Part shown: piece by piece, positions 31,492 to 38,739 of the stretch | How positions within the stretch are numbered: position 1 is the first letter of the stretch | Layout: the number at the start of each line of letters is the position of its first letter | NCBI GenBank assembly: GCA_048213135.1 | Contig: PS015133.1 | Span: 2,878 to 65,606 of the forward strand | Length of the DNA: 62,729 nt | DNA from: Reclinomonas americana ATCC 50394 | Lineage: Eukaryota | Direction of reading: 5' to 3' | Made by a program: the position numbers and the translations under genes | The notes under the pieces: model-generated | Seen by the model: the letters and a program-made list of their open reading frames with translations, nothing else | The model's database searches: none | What the model was told of the DNA's origin: nothing

Positions 31492-34006
31492 ATGTCACAG
31501 GCTGCTGTGCGCGACGAATCACAGCCCGTCGTTTCGGTAACGGATGCTGCTGCCGCTGTTGTTGAGGGCAAGGAGGAGAAGGCGGAAAAGTTGCGTGTGT
31601 TGTCCTTGTGTGATTGCTGTCCCTCTCGTGCTTGCCTTTTTCTCGTCAATCTCCTCTCCCCGTGTTGTCTACCTGCACCTTGTATCTCGTATTCGCCTGC
31701 CTTTTTTCGTCAATATCCCCGTCATCGCTCTCGCCCTCCCTTTTCGCGCATTGCATGTTTAAAAGCTGCTGTGCTCTCCACCGACAATGCATGCACGGTT
31801 GCTTGCACTGTGCTCCTCTCGTCTCTCGCGCATCTCCTCGCCTTCTTTTTGCCTCTCTTTCCGCGCGTTTATTGTTTTCGACCATGTCTCACACACCTTG
31901 TATCTCGCTTTCTCCTGCTTGTCAATTCTTCCACTACCTCCACTGTCGTACGCCAAGCTCATCTTCTCTTGTGCTCGCCTACTTGCCTTGCCATCTTCTT
32001 CTCCCCCTCTTCCCCATTCTCCCTCTGCGCCCTTCTCCCTCTGCGCCCTCACCTCCTCCCCACCCCATCACAGGAAAGCCTCCAGTCCACGCCACTCCAG
32101 CAAGAGGTCTCTTTCCACCCCCTTCTCATCGCCTCTCCCCACACCACTCACCTCTCTTTACCCCCACCACAGAAGTCGCAGTCGGAGTCCCGCCAAAAGG
32201 TGCTTCCCTTCCCATCTATTCCCCCCCTCNNNNNNNNNNNNNNNNNNNNCGGTCTGTTCAACACCGCCGGCGGAGCGCCCGCATTCAGCGCCATTCAGCT
32301 TTTGCAGGCGCAGCAGCAGCTGCAAGCGCAGCAAATGCTACTGCGACAGGCGCAGCTGCTGCGCTCCATGGCGGGCGGAGCAGCTGTGGGCACCACCGGC
32401 AACCCGCTGCACCGCGTCTACATTGGCAATATGCACCCGCTCATGTCGGAGCAGGAAGTGCGGCAGGTCTTCCAGCTCTTTGGGCTGGTGGCCGGCATCA
32501 CCATGTCGCCGACAGTTGCGTTTCGGGAGTGGACTGTCACTTATCAACTTTTCATGATTGATCTCACCGCTTGAGCAGGATCCCTCAACCTACCGCCACA
32601 AGGGCTGGTGCTTTGTCGAGTACGCCACGCCCGAGGCCGCCACCGCCGCCATTCAGATTATGGATGGTTACCCGATGGGCGGGCGCAACCTGCGCGTCGG
32701 GCGGCCTAATGCCGCTGCCTCGGCGCCCAAGTTGGCAGAGACCGTGGCCACCCTCTCGGCCTCCAATCCTCGTTGCGCTCCTTTTTGCTCAGACTATCGT
32801 GCAAGTGTGTGTGTGTGATTCTCACGCGTGTTTTATGTGCGCAGCCACTCCACCCTTTGACTTGCTGGCCACGGTGGCGGAGCCGATCTCACAACGCCTC
32901 GCACTCAGTTGCGCACCGACTGCTATCTTCTTGAACGATCGTCCTGCGCTCATGTGTTCATGTCGTCTGCACAGTTCCCGATTCGGCGGCGCCGGACGTG
33001 TTGAACCCGCGCGCACATCTGTATGTTGGATCGATTGTGTGGACCATTGGCGAGCCGGAGCTGCGCACGCTGTTCTCGCAGTTTGGCAACATTCGAGCCA
33101 TTCAGCTGTCGGTGAGTTGTGTTGCGCATGTGCGGTGGATGACTGTGCGTTGACCAATGTGCATGTGAACACAGCACAATCCAGAGACCAAGACGCACAA
33201 GGGATACGCGTGAGTGCTCAACAATCACCCCGCATCATGTGTTCGTGACTGCTAACTTCTCTCCCCTCGCCGCAGCTTTGTCGAGTACGAGTCGGAGGAG
33301 GCCGCACAAATGGCCATTGCCACTCTGAATGGCATGTCGCTCGGCGGTCGCCAGTTGAAGGTGAAATGCTTCGGCAGGATTGCGTACTGACTGATCGCTC
33401 GTCTGACCGATTCCACTGCAGGTCGGTCTGCCCAAGCAAACTGCGCCGACGCCCAACAACCCGTCGGAGGAGCCCACTGGCGGTGTCAATGTTTCGTTGA
33501 TGGAGCGAGAGAGTGTGCCCTTTCCAATGCTGACAATGCTTTGCAGGTGATTCGGCGTCTGCTGATTCTGCGCAACATGCTGTCGTGGGACGACGACGAC
33601 AGTGATTTGGAGTCGGAGGTGCTGAGCGAGGCCGTCAAATTTGGCGCGGTGGTTCGTTGACAGCGAAATGCATTCTTCTTACACTGGTAAGTTTCTCGCT
33701 TACTTTTGCCATCGCTGTGCCAGCTTTCGCTGCAGGTGGTGCGCATCCCGAACGGCGTCGGCGGCGGTCGAGTGGAGGTGTGGGTGTTGTACCAGTCGCC
33801 CACCAGTGCGTACACGTGGATTCTCGTTGGTGTTTTGCCTGCGGCTCACTTGCTTGTCTTTCTTTGCCCCTGCAGGCGCCGGTTCTGCGCAACAAGTCAT
33901 GCACGGACGCGTGTTTGGTGGTCACAAAGTCGTGGCCACACTGGTGCCGGAGGCGTCGACGGCCACGCAAGGTGCGGGAGGGGGGAAGTTTGGGGAAGGG
34001 AGGTAG
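31492..34006 (+). CDS. PUF60: PUF60-like (poly(U)-binding splicing factor) protein: RS stretch, two RRMs and a C-terminal UHM, multi-exon
   Basis: Spliced: RSRSRSPAK; RRM1 RVYIGNMH...ITMSPT|DPSTYRHKGWCFVEYATPEAATAAIQIMDGYPMGGRNLRVGRP; RRM2 LYVGSI...ETKTHKGYAFVEY...GGRQLKVG; UHM LLILRNML...DLESEVLSEAVKFGAV...MHGRVFGGHKVVA. RBM39 is the alternative assignment. Confidence 0.75.
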
Positions 34007-34634
34007 GGAGAGGGGCAGAGAAGGGGAAAAGGAGATATGTTATAGGAGGCTCCCTTCTGTCTTCTCATACAAAACACGTAAACACGTGTTAATAGAGAAG
34101 GTGACAGAGAGAGAGAGAGGAGGGAGAGCGGACGGGGAGAAGAGACACAGCGATGAAGCAGAGAACTCCGTTCGCTTTTGTTTTCTTGTTCCGCGTCGCT
34201 GTGCAAGACAGCGAGGTGATTGAAAGAAACAATGCTGTTCTTATTTCTCTCGCTTGATGTGTGTTTGTGTGTGCGCGCGCGTGTGTGTGTGTGCGTGCGA
34301 AGAAGAGATGCGACTGAACGCACATATTTGCCTGCGCCCTTTCTGCATTCACGCAGCTCCTGCAGAGAGAAAGAAAGAGAGAGAGAGAGAGCGAGAGAGA
34401 GCGAGAGAGAGAGAGAGAGAAAGAAGTCGCGCGGTTAGAGGGAGTCGGCAATGCTCTTCTGCCACTGTTCATCTCTTCCCTCATCACTGTGTGCTTATGG
34501 TGTCGATGAATGATACTCTTCCTTCCCTGTTTTCTCTCCCTTGCCAAAGCGATAAGCTGCGCGCCTCAGTCTCGATTTTCTCTCTGTCTTTGCCTTCGAG
34601 GAGTCCGTGAGAGCACAGAGCTGTTTCCACACGT

Positions 34635-34994
34635 TTAGCCGGAGCGAGGGAGAGAGATAAAATGCACAGTAATACTCAGTTCACTCACTCCATCCATCTC
34701 TTTTTCCTTTGTCACGGGGAGCAGTAAGTGTGCCTCGTTGGCACTCTCCGTCTTGTCTTTGCCTCTGAGAATCTGGATGGTTAGAAAGCATAGATGTGTT
34801 GTTGCACTCTTGCTATCACCGGACACGAGAGAAAGAGAGCGAGGGAGGGTTCGTTTCTGTTTGTAAAAATATTGTGCTAACAACTTCGCCACATCAGTTC
34901 CCGGTGTCGTCACGTCGTCCACAACGGTGGCTGGTGCTGGCGCCTCGTCGTCTTCAACTCCGGCAGCAGCGACGACTGCCGCAGCTCCCGTCAC
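34635..34994 (-). CDS. Possible orphan coding fragment
   Basis: 119-codon ORF with a protein-like segment (DDEAPAPATVVDDVTTPGTDVAKLLAQYFYKQKRTL); no ATG start or family recognised. Confidence 0.2.
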   Translation of the reverse strand: MTGAAAVVAAAGVEDDEAPAPATVVDDVTTPGTDVAKLLAQYFYKQKRTLPRSLSLVSGDSKSATTHLCFLTIQILRGKDKTESANEAHLLLPVTKEKEMDGVSELSITVHFISLPRSG

Positions 34995-35276
34995 TCTCCG
35001 TTACGTACCAACTCCTAGTTCAATCCCTCCTCGCTTCCACAGACCACTCACAGTTTGCCAACAGCGCCCGACTACGAGCCGGTGGGCAGCTTGGACGACG
35101 AGTAGTAAACATGCCGAGTAGATGATTCACACAACAACGTCGTTGTTCATTGTCACAGCATTCTACACGCCCTCCCTTGATGGCAATACCACTCTCCGCT
35201 CTCTCCGTGCGACCCAGCCCGTCCACTCTCCGTGGGAAGGTTACGGCGTGGACGGGCTGTGATGGGCCGCCATTGT

Positions 35277-35336
35277 GTCAGGCACCAGCCAGTGCACACC
35301 AAAACAGGGGGGTGGCCTTTGCGGCTGAGCCTTCAT
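35277..35336 (-). promoter_or_regulatory. Putative eukaryotic SECIS element (type II) in the 3' UTR of the selenoprotein gene
   Basis: The minus strand reads ATGAA-GGCTCAGCC-GC-AAA-GGC-CACC-CCCCTGTTTT-GGTG-TGCACT-GGCTGGTGCC-TGAC. It has an AUGA...GA core, a ~9-bp helix II (GGCUCAGCC/GGCUGGUGCC, one bulge), AAA 12 nt after AUGA and a CACC/GGUG mini-stem. It starts ~87 nt downstream of the stop codon. Confidence 0.78.
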
Positions 35337-35422
35337 ACGTGAGAGAGACAGAGAGCGAAATGCACACCAGAGCGGGCAGGGGGAATGCCAATGAGTGTGT
35401 GTGGTGATGACTGCGGAGATCG

Positions 35423-36990
35423 TTAGATCAGCATCACCACTGTGGCAAACGCCACAGCAATGGCCGAGGACACCGCAAAGACGTAGTTGGTCTCGCGGCG
35501 CTTCTGGTCACGGAATTCGCGCATGTGGCGCGGCATCGGTTTCTTCCCAGTACCCTGTGTTTTTTTTTTGGGGGGGGAGTGAGGTGCGGTGTATGTTGCT
35601 TTCGATGGATTGTAGAGACGCAACGTCGGGGTTCCATTGCTGGAAAGAGGAGAGGGGATGATAGTGAGCGACAGTATCAACAAAATGAGATCGTCAAGTA
35701 AAACACACGCTCACCCCGCGGTAAATCATGCCTCATTGGCCCTTCTGACCCATCCAGAACACGGTGAAGCCAGAGCCAAACGTCTGCAAGGAGGATGAGT
35801 GCCAACAACTCACTTCACATCTTGTAGCGACACACAACGCAACGAAAAAGAGCGCAGCGCCGCGCCACCACAGCTCGCGCTGTCCGTGCCACAGGTACGA
35901 CATGTAGAGCGAGGTCAGCACCAGCGCAATGCCGGCGTAGAAGCGGATCTTGCGGTCGATGGAGCAGGTGATGTAGCCGCGCTGCGGGGGAGGAGGAGAA
36001 AGGGTGAGGACGAGGGTGAGGAGAAGGAAGGAAAGAGGAAGGAGAGGAGGGTGCGAGAAGGAAGGTCAAGGATGGCGGGATGAAGGAGTTGGGGGTGTGA
36101 GGGAGAAGGTGTAAGAGTGAGGAAGCAGTCGGAAGGGCAAGGAAGGAGGGATGAAGGAGCTGGGGGGCTGAGGGAGAAGGGAAGAGCGAGGGAGAAGGGA
36201 CGGGTGAAGGAGCAGAGAACGGCAAGGGAGAAGCGAAGTGCGTGGACAATGGGAACGGGCGAGATAAGAGTACAGTGCGAGGTAGAAGACACGAGAGGAA
36301 GGGCGGAAAATGCGACAAGTGCAAGCATGCGAGTGCACAGCCAGTCACAATCAACAGCCAATAGACATAGTTCAGCAAGGTAAGAGGAGAGGTTGTCGCA
36401 GAACGCAAGGTGATGACAGAAAAGACTGCACGTCGATGACGGTCATGAAGGAGGAGAGAGTACAGGATCAAGGGAGGACGCTGCAACAGGATGCAAAGGC
36501 ACAAGAGAAGAGCACCGCATGCCATTTGTCAATCACATGCAGAAGGTGACACGAGAAGAAGAAGAAGAAGAAGAAGAGTAGACACTGCACGGAGAAATTG
36601 CAAGCACACAATGCATGCAAGCAATCAATCAATCAATCACGCAAAGAGAGAGAGAGAGAGAGAGTAAGGCACATGCACGCAAGGAGAACAATGTCTCTCT
36701 TGTTTATGACTCTCTCTTGTGTGTGCAAGTGTGTATGTGTGAAAGAGAGAGAGAGAGAGAGTGAGTGAGAGAGTGAGTGTGAGAGTGTGAGACACACATT
36801 GGAAGAACAGTGTCTCTCTCGCCCTCTTGGGACACACTCTCTCTCTCTCTCTCTTGTGTGTATGTGTGTGTGAGAGAGAAAGGCTGACACACATATCACT
36901 CTCTCTCTCTCTCCTCCTCACTCCTCACTGCACCTTGAGGTTATACTCGGGAGTATCCGGCACATCTGCCGCATCCACAGCACCACTCAT
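35423..36990 (-). CDS. Putative membrane selenoprotein (MSP-like), 136 aa, Sec at the in-frame TGA 35735-35733
   Basis: Exons 36990-36934, 35981-35844, 35783-35715, 35639-35625 and 35554-35423, all joined by phase-0 GT-AG introns, give MSGAVDAADVPDTPEYNLKRGYITCSIDRKIRFYAGIALVLTSLYMSYLWHGQRELWWRGAALFFTFGSGFTVFWMGQKGQUGMIYRGQWNPDGTGKKPMPRHMREFRDQKRRETNYVFAVSSAIAVAFATVVMLI-TAA. It has three hydrophobic segments and a downstream SECIS. Confidence 0.8.
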
Positions 36991-37079: not shown

Positions 37080-38739
37080 ATGTTTTCTCGCGGCGCTCTT
37101 CATTGCCGTCGGCTTTTGTCGACAACGTCGACGTTTTCGGCAAAGGGGATCCGAGTGCCTACTGCTGGTTTCATTGCCATTGGCAATGAGGTGCTCACTG
37201 GCAAAGTGCACGATGTGAATACGTTTAATCTCGCAAAGTGTGCGTGTTCTCTCTGTGTGTGTGTATGAGAGAGAGAGAGATGGGAAGGGCGTAGAGTTGT
37301 CTTTGGTTGTCGCTGTTGCATTCTTCCGTCAATCACTTCATCAATCTTCAGCTTCTTTACGTGTTTCTCTTCATCTCCTCCTCTTTCTGCACTGTCTTCT
37401 TGATCTTCCAGTCTGCTTTATTCTCCTCCTCCTCCTCCTCCTCCTCCTCCTCCTCCTCCTCCTCCTCCTCCTCCTCCTCCTCCTCCCATCTTTATTGTTC
37501 CTCTCTTTCTTTTATATCATCGTTGTCTTGTTCTTCTTCTCCTTCTTCTCCTTCTTCTCTTTCCCTCCTCTTCCTCCTCCTCCTCTTCTTCCTGATCTTC
37601 TTCTTCATCTTCATCTTCTTCTGCTCCTCCTCCAATCCTCATAGTTCTTCTCCTTGTACTCCACCATCGTTGTGTTGTTCCTCTTCTTGTTCCTGTTCGT
37701 GTTCTTGTTTGTGTTCTTGTTCTTCTCCCGCTCCTCCTCCTTCTTCTCTTTCTTCTCGTCTTCCTCCTCCCCTCCTGCTTATCCTCCTCCTCCTCCTCCT
37801 CCTCCTCCCTTCCCTCCTCTCTCTCTCTCACACATCTCCCTTCCCTTCCCTCCCTTCCCTCCCTTCCCTCTCTTCTCCCTTCCCCCTCTCTCTCTCAGTC
37901 CTCTTCAAGCAAGGCGTCGACCTCCGCCGCGTCTCCGTCATCCCCGACGACCGCGCCGACATTGTGGACACGGCGAGGCGATTCAGCGAGCGCTTCGACT
38001 TTGTGTTCACCTCCGGAGGCATTGGACCCACTCATGACGGTCTGCTTTCTCTCTCTCCCGTCTGCCATGTGTGTGTCGTCCGGCTCTCATATGCGCAAAA
38101 AGATATTACGTACGAGTCGCTGGCGGCGGCATTCGACGTGCGGCTTGCCTACGACGATCGCGTGCTGCGGAAAATGGAGCACTACTACAAGCCGCGGAAG
38201 ATCGACGTGTACAGCAACCTGAACGTGAAGCGCATGGCGTTGCTGCCGATCGGCTGCGAGATTCTGTGGACGGAGGACTTGTGGGTGCCGCTGTGTGTGG
38301 TCAACCGGAACGTGCACATTCTGCCCGGCATCCCCTCGCTGTTCATGCGCATGATTGAGGCGCAGGCGGAGCGCTTCGTCGGGCCACCGAAGACGCGCCA
38401 GCTGCTGTACACGTTGAGTCGGGAGTCGGCGATTGCCGATGCGTTGCGCGAGGCCGAGGCCAAGTTTGATGTGGCGGTCGGTGAGTGGGGACAGAAGGGG
38501 GAAGAAGGGGGCGCTGCAGGGCGAGGTGGTGAATGACTCGGCAGGGTGCAGGTTCGTACCCAAAGTACGGCGACCCGGCGCAGTTTGGCTACGCGGTGAT
38601 GGTGTCGGTGGAGAGCATTCACGAAAAGGCTGTGCGCGATGCCGTGTCGTACATTCGCAAGAAGAACCCGGATCTGACGCCGGAGATGCCGTTGCCAGTG
38701 CCGGCGGCGGCGGCGGCGGCGGCAGGAGCGGCAGCATGA
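37080..38739 (+). CDS. Molybdopterin-binding domain protein (CinA / FAD synthase MPTb-like), probable mitochondrial presequence, 4 exons
   Basis: Exons 37080-37239, 37899-38039, 38103-38480 and 38552-38739. Motifs IAIGNEVLTGKVHDVN, VFTSGGIGPTHDDITYE, NVHILPGIPSLF and VAVGSYP; the N-terminus MFSRGALHCRRLLSTT is Arg/Ser/Thr-rich and lacks acidic residues. Confidence 0.9.

Follow-up and report, generated by a model that had tools for sequence, protein, structure and literature searches.

A SECIS-like hairpin behind a candidate small membrane selenoprotein gene of Reclinomonas americana, with a predicted long-range helix I

Textbook SECIS elements are stem-loop-stem-loop structures whose 3′ strand is the non-bulged one, and they must bind the L7Ae domain of SBP2. 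Through this domain SBP2 binds the kink-turn core and brings in eEFSec together with the Sec-tRNA (PMC2746813), and helix 1, which closes the internal loop, is important for recoding (PMC2761289). Published limits for the type II form place the unpaired AA 10–13 nt from the core and 15–39 nt from the GA (PMC2375036). The 3′ core of eukaryotic SECIS elements follows the consensus KGAW, and SECISearch patterns place helix 1 beside the core (PMC3753652). A k-junction, described in another context, is a kink-turn whose non-bulged strand carries an extra helix, and L7Ae failed to fold the two k-junctions tested (PMC10573300); that paper makes no mention of SECIS.

Here we analysed a 62,729-nt stretch of the genome of R. 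americana ATCC 50394 (the window, to which coordinates refer unless stated otherwise), in which an earlier note had proposed a type II SECIS hairpin serving an upstream TGA-containing gene. With a probability that we put at about 0.88, the hairpin functions as the SECIS of a small membrane selenoprotein of 136 aa with Sec82, one resembling the algal "hypothetical protein 3", for which we know of no function since 2007. This selenoprotein was described from Ostreococcus in the supplement of Lobanov et al. 2007 (PMC2375036) and is probably the same as the "Hypo" family of PMC7539508.

The hairpin and how far its scores exceed chance

A hairpin with an AUGAA…UGAC core is present at 35336–35277 on the minus strand (Table 1), and its first A is nucleotide 87 after the TAA stop at 35425–35423 (86 nt between), in agreement with the distance of 87 nt in the earlier note. 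Like the eukaryotic type II SECIS (RF00031), it has an AUGA/GA core (NUGA…GA; AUGA at 35336–35333, GA at 35279–35278), an AA 12 nt above the core, a helix II and an apical mini-stem (helix III), and it is placed behind the stop of a TGA gene. The AAA, at 35320–35318, is unpaired and exactly 12 nt from the AUGA, as had been claimed, and the AA-to-GA distance is 38–39 nt; both values lie inside the published limits. The CACC/GGUG mini-stem was also recovered, lengthened by two G–C pairs to six pairs. Helix II, by contrast, had been described as 9 bp, and folding gives 11 predicted pairs (the closing A–U included) with one bulged U and pair probabilities mostly of 0.89–1.0. Unlike the type II elements, the hairpin has UGAC in its 3′ core, which fails KGAW at the last base, C, and it has no local helix I; a three-way junction that closes 68 nt downstream is predicted in its place. 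The weakness of helix I noted earlier by eye is borne out by 3.6 expected flank pairs in the short construct, compared with 17.9 for the O. lucimarinus element. The match to the eukaryotic SECIS consensus thus extends to the core, the AA spacing and helices II and III, and stops short of KGAW and an adjacent helix I.

Taken alone, the hairpin is only moderate evidence for a SECIS. The stability of the 60-mer is ordinary (−22.5 kcal/mol, z = −1.13), with 24 of 200 shuffles equally good. A match to a SECIS model was obtained in part: the full Rfam SECIS_1 model (RF00031) is covered, but at 17.4 bits (E = 0.54), under the gathering cut-off of 35, and in a SECIS_1 scan of 6 kb the hairpin was absent among the matches at E ≤ 10. 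SECIS_1 is insensitive here, since over 11 loci the two best family SECIS elements reached 25 bits and that of O. lucimarinus did not appear among the matches. Our own rule-based scan ranked the hairpin first of nine SECIS-like sites in the window (10.5 versus 8.0). When the 400 nt behind the stop were shuffled, any site appeared in 17 of 1000 sequences and a site as good in 0 of 1000. A covariance model built from seven algal SECIS elements, which also missed several family elements, placed the hairpin 8th of 32 (E = 1.2). Its 60 nt carry no change relative to the second copy of the locus, compared with 12 in 256 nt of flanking UTR, a difference that is weak alone, and no AATAAA lies between the stop codon and the hairpin.

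Table 1. Features of the locus in window coordinates
Feature	Position	Strand	Basis and remarks
SECIS upper part (core, helix II, apical AAA, helix III)	35277–35336	minus	folding, Rfam, rule-based scan
Non-Watson-Crick core, 5′ strand AUGAA	35332–35336	minus	sequence; AUGA mostly unpaired, p 0.61–1.0
Core, 3′ strand UGAC	35277–35280	minus	sequence; G and A unpaired, p ≥ 0.98
Helix II	35280–35332	minus	35332–35322 with 35280–35291, bulged U at 35284 (folding)
Apical AAA, unpaired	35318–35320	minus	12 nt after AUGA; sequence and folding
Helix III (type II mini-stem)	35294–35316	minus	35316–35311 with 35294–35300, p about 0.87
Long-range helix I, 5′ strand, CU-rich	35337–35358	minus	predicted, folding
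Long-range helix I, 3′ strand, GA-rich	35189–35208	minus	predicted; 68 nt after core; outward to about 35389/35157
Inserted 62-nt hairpin (third arm)	35209–35270	minus	predicted, most pairs p ≥ 0.98; 6-nt linker, 3′ side of internal loop
Exon 1, ATG at 36990, predicted	36934–36990	minus	GT donor; unchanged in second copy
Exon 2 (Cys25, first helix, start of second)	35844–35981	minus	profile alignment, second copy
Exon 3, with in-frame TGA	35715–35783	minus	sequence
TGA, codon 82, predicted selenocysteine	35733–35735	minus	profile alignment; kept in second copy
Exon 4, 15-nt micro-exon, conserved Trp	35625–35639	minus	AG/GT boundaries; puts family motif in register
Exon 5 (basic linker, third helix, TAA stop)	35423–35554	minus	sequence
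Probable TAG stop of convergent RRM gene	35103–35105	plus	read by eye

The upstream gene and its protein family

The gene comprises five predicted exons with GT–AG introns and 136 codons, with one in-frame TGA at codon 82; the model requires a 15-nt exon and the splicing out of a 60-nt intron that is itself in frame. Contig C95 carries a second copy, probably the other allele, which is about 90% identical overall and retains the TGA, with four changes in 411 coding nt (three of them silent) and 61 in 1073 aligned intron nt. On the Kyte–Doolittle scale only the last helix is strongly hydrophobic (2.5), the first reaching 1.3 and the second staying under 1.2.

Direct protein searches with the exon 2–3 frame returned no relative at the thresholds used. 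Two matches to this frame in a representative library were both unrelated repeats and were set aside, and hhalign with the exon 2–3 fragment reached 0.7% only. In the full gene model, G-x-U-x5-G-x-W-[DN]-x-D-G-x-G stands in register with Ostreococcus hypothetical protein 3, and the 136-codon gene carries the family motif G-x-U-x5-G-x-W-[DN]-x-[DE]-G-x-G with TGA. Scanning metagenome DNA for the motif yielded at least 120 loci, and the matches listed comprise 62 with TGA, 29 with TGC and 29 with TGT. Among these listed matches, 41 TGA loci are clear members and four are divergent with U-G as here; all 45 carry TGA at the Sec column, and none of 58 TGY matches scored as family. SECIS-like sites occurred in the 3′ flanks of motif loci in 7 of 25 cases in sense and 0 in antisense, compared with 2 of 50 decoys (duplicates included). 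Fifteen of 45 database relatives were inspected; 11 stop exactly before the Sec codon, two carry C and one W. The divergent TGA members (L032, L082, L083 and L112), which have U-G and not U-N, are nearest in motif to the gene described here.

A prokaryotic family was found with a second pattern in which both Cys were fixed, so that their invariance is not independent. Its matches are open in frame in 86 of 101 cases, and hhalign supports homology to the algal family at 97.9%. The hosts are Chloroflexota, Actinomycetota, Halobacteria and others, with members in Microbacterium and Halogranum. No Pfam family scored above its cut-off in the eight members scanned, NCBIfam gave no family match, and the family is unnamed in Pfam and the Atlas. 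Gene neighbourhoods disclosed no functional theme, the clusters being mostly opposite-frame ORFs and lineage synteny.

A profile combining 85 prokaryotic with 33 algal proteins, from which one stray match and the divergent members were excluded, scored the predicted product at 26.2 bits, with a pairwise E of 2.7e-10 and a nearly gap-free alignment over residues 34–135, in which Sec82 falls on the Cys/Sec column. This score was reached by none of 3000 shuffles, nor by any of 3000 that kept the motif, and the best non-family ORF of 7444 scored 12.1. With the motif masked, the protein scored 7.5 bits, equalled by 2 of 3000 shuffles. The prokaryote-only profile gave 14.0 bits (0 of 3000 shuffles) and the algal-only profile 17.0 bits, versus 16.1 for a motif-selected decoy. 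The similarity to the family is remote, at about E = 1.6 when scaled to 5.8 billion proteins. The profile alignment starts at residue 34, and of the N-terminal N-I-[DG]-x-x-E-R-x-x-R signature D-R-x-x-R-x3-G alone matches, by eye.

Structure models of one algal and one prokaryotic member (pLDDT 93) contain three long helices with a small strand nearby, and in both the Cys/Sec stands directly after the second helix. With a family model, Foldseek gave no match at E ≤ 0.001; the best VIA hits, at Z 6.4 (rmsd 7.4, 115 aligned) and Z 6.8 (rmsd 5.2, 91 aligned), were dismissed as common helical arrangements. PDB sequence searches gave nothing significant, and the algal protein had no match among plasmids and prokaryotic genomes. 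The Atlas, queried with an algal Cys-form protein, gave leads at 0.82–0.83 only.

The candidate shares with hypothetical protein 3 the register of the Sec motif, a conserved Arg before helix 2, a SECIS in the 3′ flank, a predicted three-helix layout and a basic linker preceding the last helix. It differs in its short N-terminus without the long algal leader, its N-terminal Cys, its five exons and the remoteness of the similarity, and in that the algal SECIS elements mostly have a local helix I. With the prokaryotic three-helix family it shares length, predicted layout, an N-terminal Cys and a Cys aligned with Sec82, whereas theirs is Cys rather than Sec, and the N-terminal Cys lies about three residues off, by eye. 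MSP, like the product predicted here, is a small membrane selenoprotein of protists, but it has G-x-U-C-W-P before its helices (supplement of Lobanov et al., PMC2375036), and this motif is absent here, so identity with MSP was rejected. A YgaP-like transmembrane domain (PF11127) was likewise not accepted, at 15.7 bits against a Pfam cut-off of 25.3. Weak PF11127 matches occur in two of 26 algal-type and one of eight prokaryotic members, and a remote link to PF11127 is possible. No paper combining selenoprotein and DUF2892 was found in literature that covers few subscription journals.

Selenocysteine machinery and the predicted long-range helix I

The genome contains two copies of tRNA-Sec (72.3 bits, anticodon TCA) and encodes SepSecS and eEFSec. 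Further in-frame TGA genes with SECIS elements are those of TrxR, GPx and MsrA, with TGA at the known Sec sites, and paralogues of these genes use TGC. With the alignment of Sec82 on the Cys/Sec column and this machinery, a type II-like SECIS for the upstream TGA gene, with predicted read-through, is well supported; the earlier proposal stands in this form, with the amendment that helix I is non-local.

Folding in a context of 293 nt predicts that helix I is formed at long range, with a hairpin inserted as the third arm of the junction (Table 1). An adjacent helix I is not predicted, at 0.1 local versus 9.8 distal expected pairs, and the branched region is the most structured of 79 window tiles (z = −7.7, the next being −3.95). 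Predicted closure was compared, with the core kept open, in five TGA genes (this one, TrxR, GPx, MsrA and CAP-Gly-MsrB). Seven of nine gene copies, from four of the five genes, closed distally, on a strand 44–100 nt away, with 6.7–10.1 distal pairs and at most 0.2 local pairs; the MsrB candidate closed locally. Fifteen elements of other organisms, hand-picked from family loci with long flanks, without duplicates and many of them related, comprised 12 with local closure, two with distal closure (one an uncertain candidate) and one unclosed. One family SECIS from another organism (L078 1186–1256, minus) has a predicted distal helix I with 8.5 distal pairs, so that branching may also occur outside this genome. 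In short constructs, local flank pairs were as few for GPx (3.2) as for this element (3.6), and TrxR and MsrA, with 15.2 and 13.3, have local alternatives. The folds were left intact by 22 of 25 between-copy substitutions (null 17.2, P = 0.008), a test that is biased in that the structure was predicted from one copy. On these folding predictions, we give the branched helix I of this element a slightly better than even chance of holding in the cell.

Based on these data, we propose a mechanism in which SBP2 would bind the tandem G·A core of the hairpin and eEFSec and Sec-tRNA would be recruited, whereupon the UGA lying 251 nt upstream in the spliced transcript would be read as Sec. Helix I would be supplied at long range, and the element would form the side arm of a three-way junction that resembles a k-junction. 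In the predicted topology, as in a k-junction, the kink-turn core bears an additional helix on its non-bulged strand; unlike in a k-junction, a 6-nt linker comes before this helix. Because L7Ae did not fold two k-junctions, this linker or the host SBP2 would have to make room. In the protein, Sec82 would lie at the membrane surface, directly after helix 2. It may serve as the nucleophile of a redox centre, with Cys25, on the same side of the membrane, as the probable resolving partner. This pairing is suggested by the prokaryotic relatives, which have an N-terminal Cys together with the aligned Cys; we rate this reading of the protein at just short of even odds.

The long-range pairing has a competing explanation, namely that the element is a type II SECIS of the ordinary sort, its helix I weak or missing, and that the distant pairing is a by-product, arising from CU/GA repeats or from a general tendency of gene ends to be structured, and has no role in Sec insertion. 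The long helix does consist of CU/GA repeats, which are common in this genome, and of 60 flank shuffles 2 reached the distal pair count of this element, 8 that of GPx, 4 that of TrxR and 20 that of MsrA; yet in all four the total folding energy is better than in 60 of 60 flank shuffles. Structured 3′ ends are likewise found in a control MsrA with its active site in an N gap (z = −3.4), but those of two confirmed Cys genes are unstructured (z = −1.3 and +0.3). The local alternatives of TrxR and MsrA, the local closure of the MsrB candidate and the compensatory changes between copies, single-sided only with no double-sided ones seen, agree with a by-product, whereas the lack of a local helix I in this element and in GPx does not, given the importance of helix 1 for recoding (PMC2761289). 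We regard the by-product explanation as plausible at odds somewhat below even. A functional branched SECIS as a trait of this lineage, with helix I strands 44–100 nt apart and still read by SBP2, would mean that such elements arose in four or more unrelated selenoprotein genes here; we put this extension forward tentatively.

Two further alternatives would do away with selenocysteine altogether. If the TGA were a true stop, of an 81-residue protein or a dead gene, the hairpin would have arisen by chance, perhaps within the 3′ end of the convergent gene. The weak stand-alone scores of the hairpin would suit such an origin, as would the closeness of the two convergent stops, some 317 nt apart, and the folding of the opposite strand of this 3′ region (z = −2.95). 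However, the family motif runs past the TGA over two more exons in register, exons 4 and 5 are unchanged in 147 nt between the copies, and the listed family loci have TGA throughout (45 of 45, with 0 of 58 TGY matches in the family), which makes a true stop improbable. A variant code in which TGA is read as Trp or Cys, with the hairpin irrelevant, could draw on the C and W residues of the three inspected relatives mentioned above; set against the Sec tRNA with its TCA anticodon, SepSecS and eEFSec, and against the GPx, MsrA and TrxR genes, which all have a SECIS, carry TGA at their known Sec positions and have paralogues with TGC, it is hardly credible. A functional SECIS of a hypothetical-protein-3-like selenoprotein is the explanation that we favour.

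The base finding is modest, because the SECIS and the protein family are of known kinds, as is Sec decoding. The branched arrangement was not found described: no SECIS with a three-way junction or a non-canonical helix I turned up in literature covering few subscription journals. If the favoured reading is true, the family reaches from algae to an apparently non-photosynthetic protist and is tied to a prokaryotic two-cysteine membrane family, whose Cys-form members in culturable prokaryotes (Microbacterium, Halogranum) make the function of hypothetical protein 3 testable. The host is probably non-photosynthetic, since no chlorophyll a/b-binding (light-harvesting) gene was found in the genome, which is not proof of absence. 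If the branched form is true, it would be under-called by searches that demand an adjacent helix I; this would reveal a blind spot in pattern-based SECIS searches, and counts of selenoproteins in related protists may be too low. The 2007 pipeline removed "Y-shaped" candidates, a term left undefined there (PMC2375036). A natural three-way-junction SECIS in several genes would also allow a direct test of the role of helix I and the internal loop in SBP2 binding.

Other selenoprotein genes and neighbouring genes

Several observations concern the other genes of this genome. The Sec GPx (L135 1–1330, contig C760; L150 5583–5656 minus, contig C22) has an N gap between its exons and the SECIS, and its TGA was read in the other copy. 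In its SECIS the AAAA lies 15 nt above the core and the apex is branched, so that the element would escape the usual 10–13 nt rule. The MsrA with G-U-F-W (L278–L280, contigs C7507 and C7513) is a Sec form with a clear SECIS, and its 3′ UTR is strongly folded and branched (z = −6.5). TrxR, with a C-S-T-U-G tail, has its SECIS at L153 2234–2282 and L154 2240–2288, with two between-copy changes located in helix II. The SECIS candidate of CAP-Gly-MsrB (L148 2674, L149 2621), whose assignment is uncertain, shows a run of A 17 nt above its core, and its top is branched. A third MsrA (L276, L277 and L282; contigs C87 and C884), the control mentioned above, has its active site in an N gap in both copies and may be another selenoprotein or a counter-example. 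Pfam Sep15_SelM and Rdx gave 0 matches in this genome. Most eukaryotic genes found come as two near-identical copies, and the megabase contigs C1 and C2 carry intron-less GPx, MsrA and MsrB genes, which suggests bacterial DNA in the assembly.

On the plus strand, a three-RRM gene (window 31763–35105), which we take to be PUF60-like, converges on the candidate gene, and as the two share the 3′ region of about 317 nt between their stops, their transcripts may overlap. The divergent neighbour (window 37150–38600, plus), presumably CinA/FAD synthase-like by its motifs, has a molybdopterin-binding domain and starts about 160 nt from the ATG of the candidate gene.
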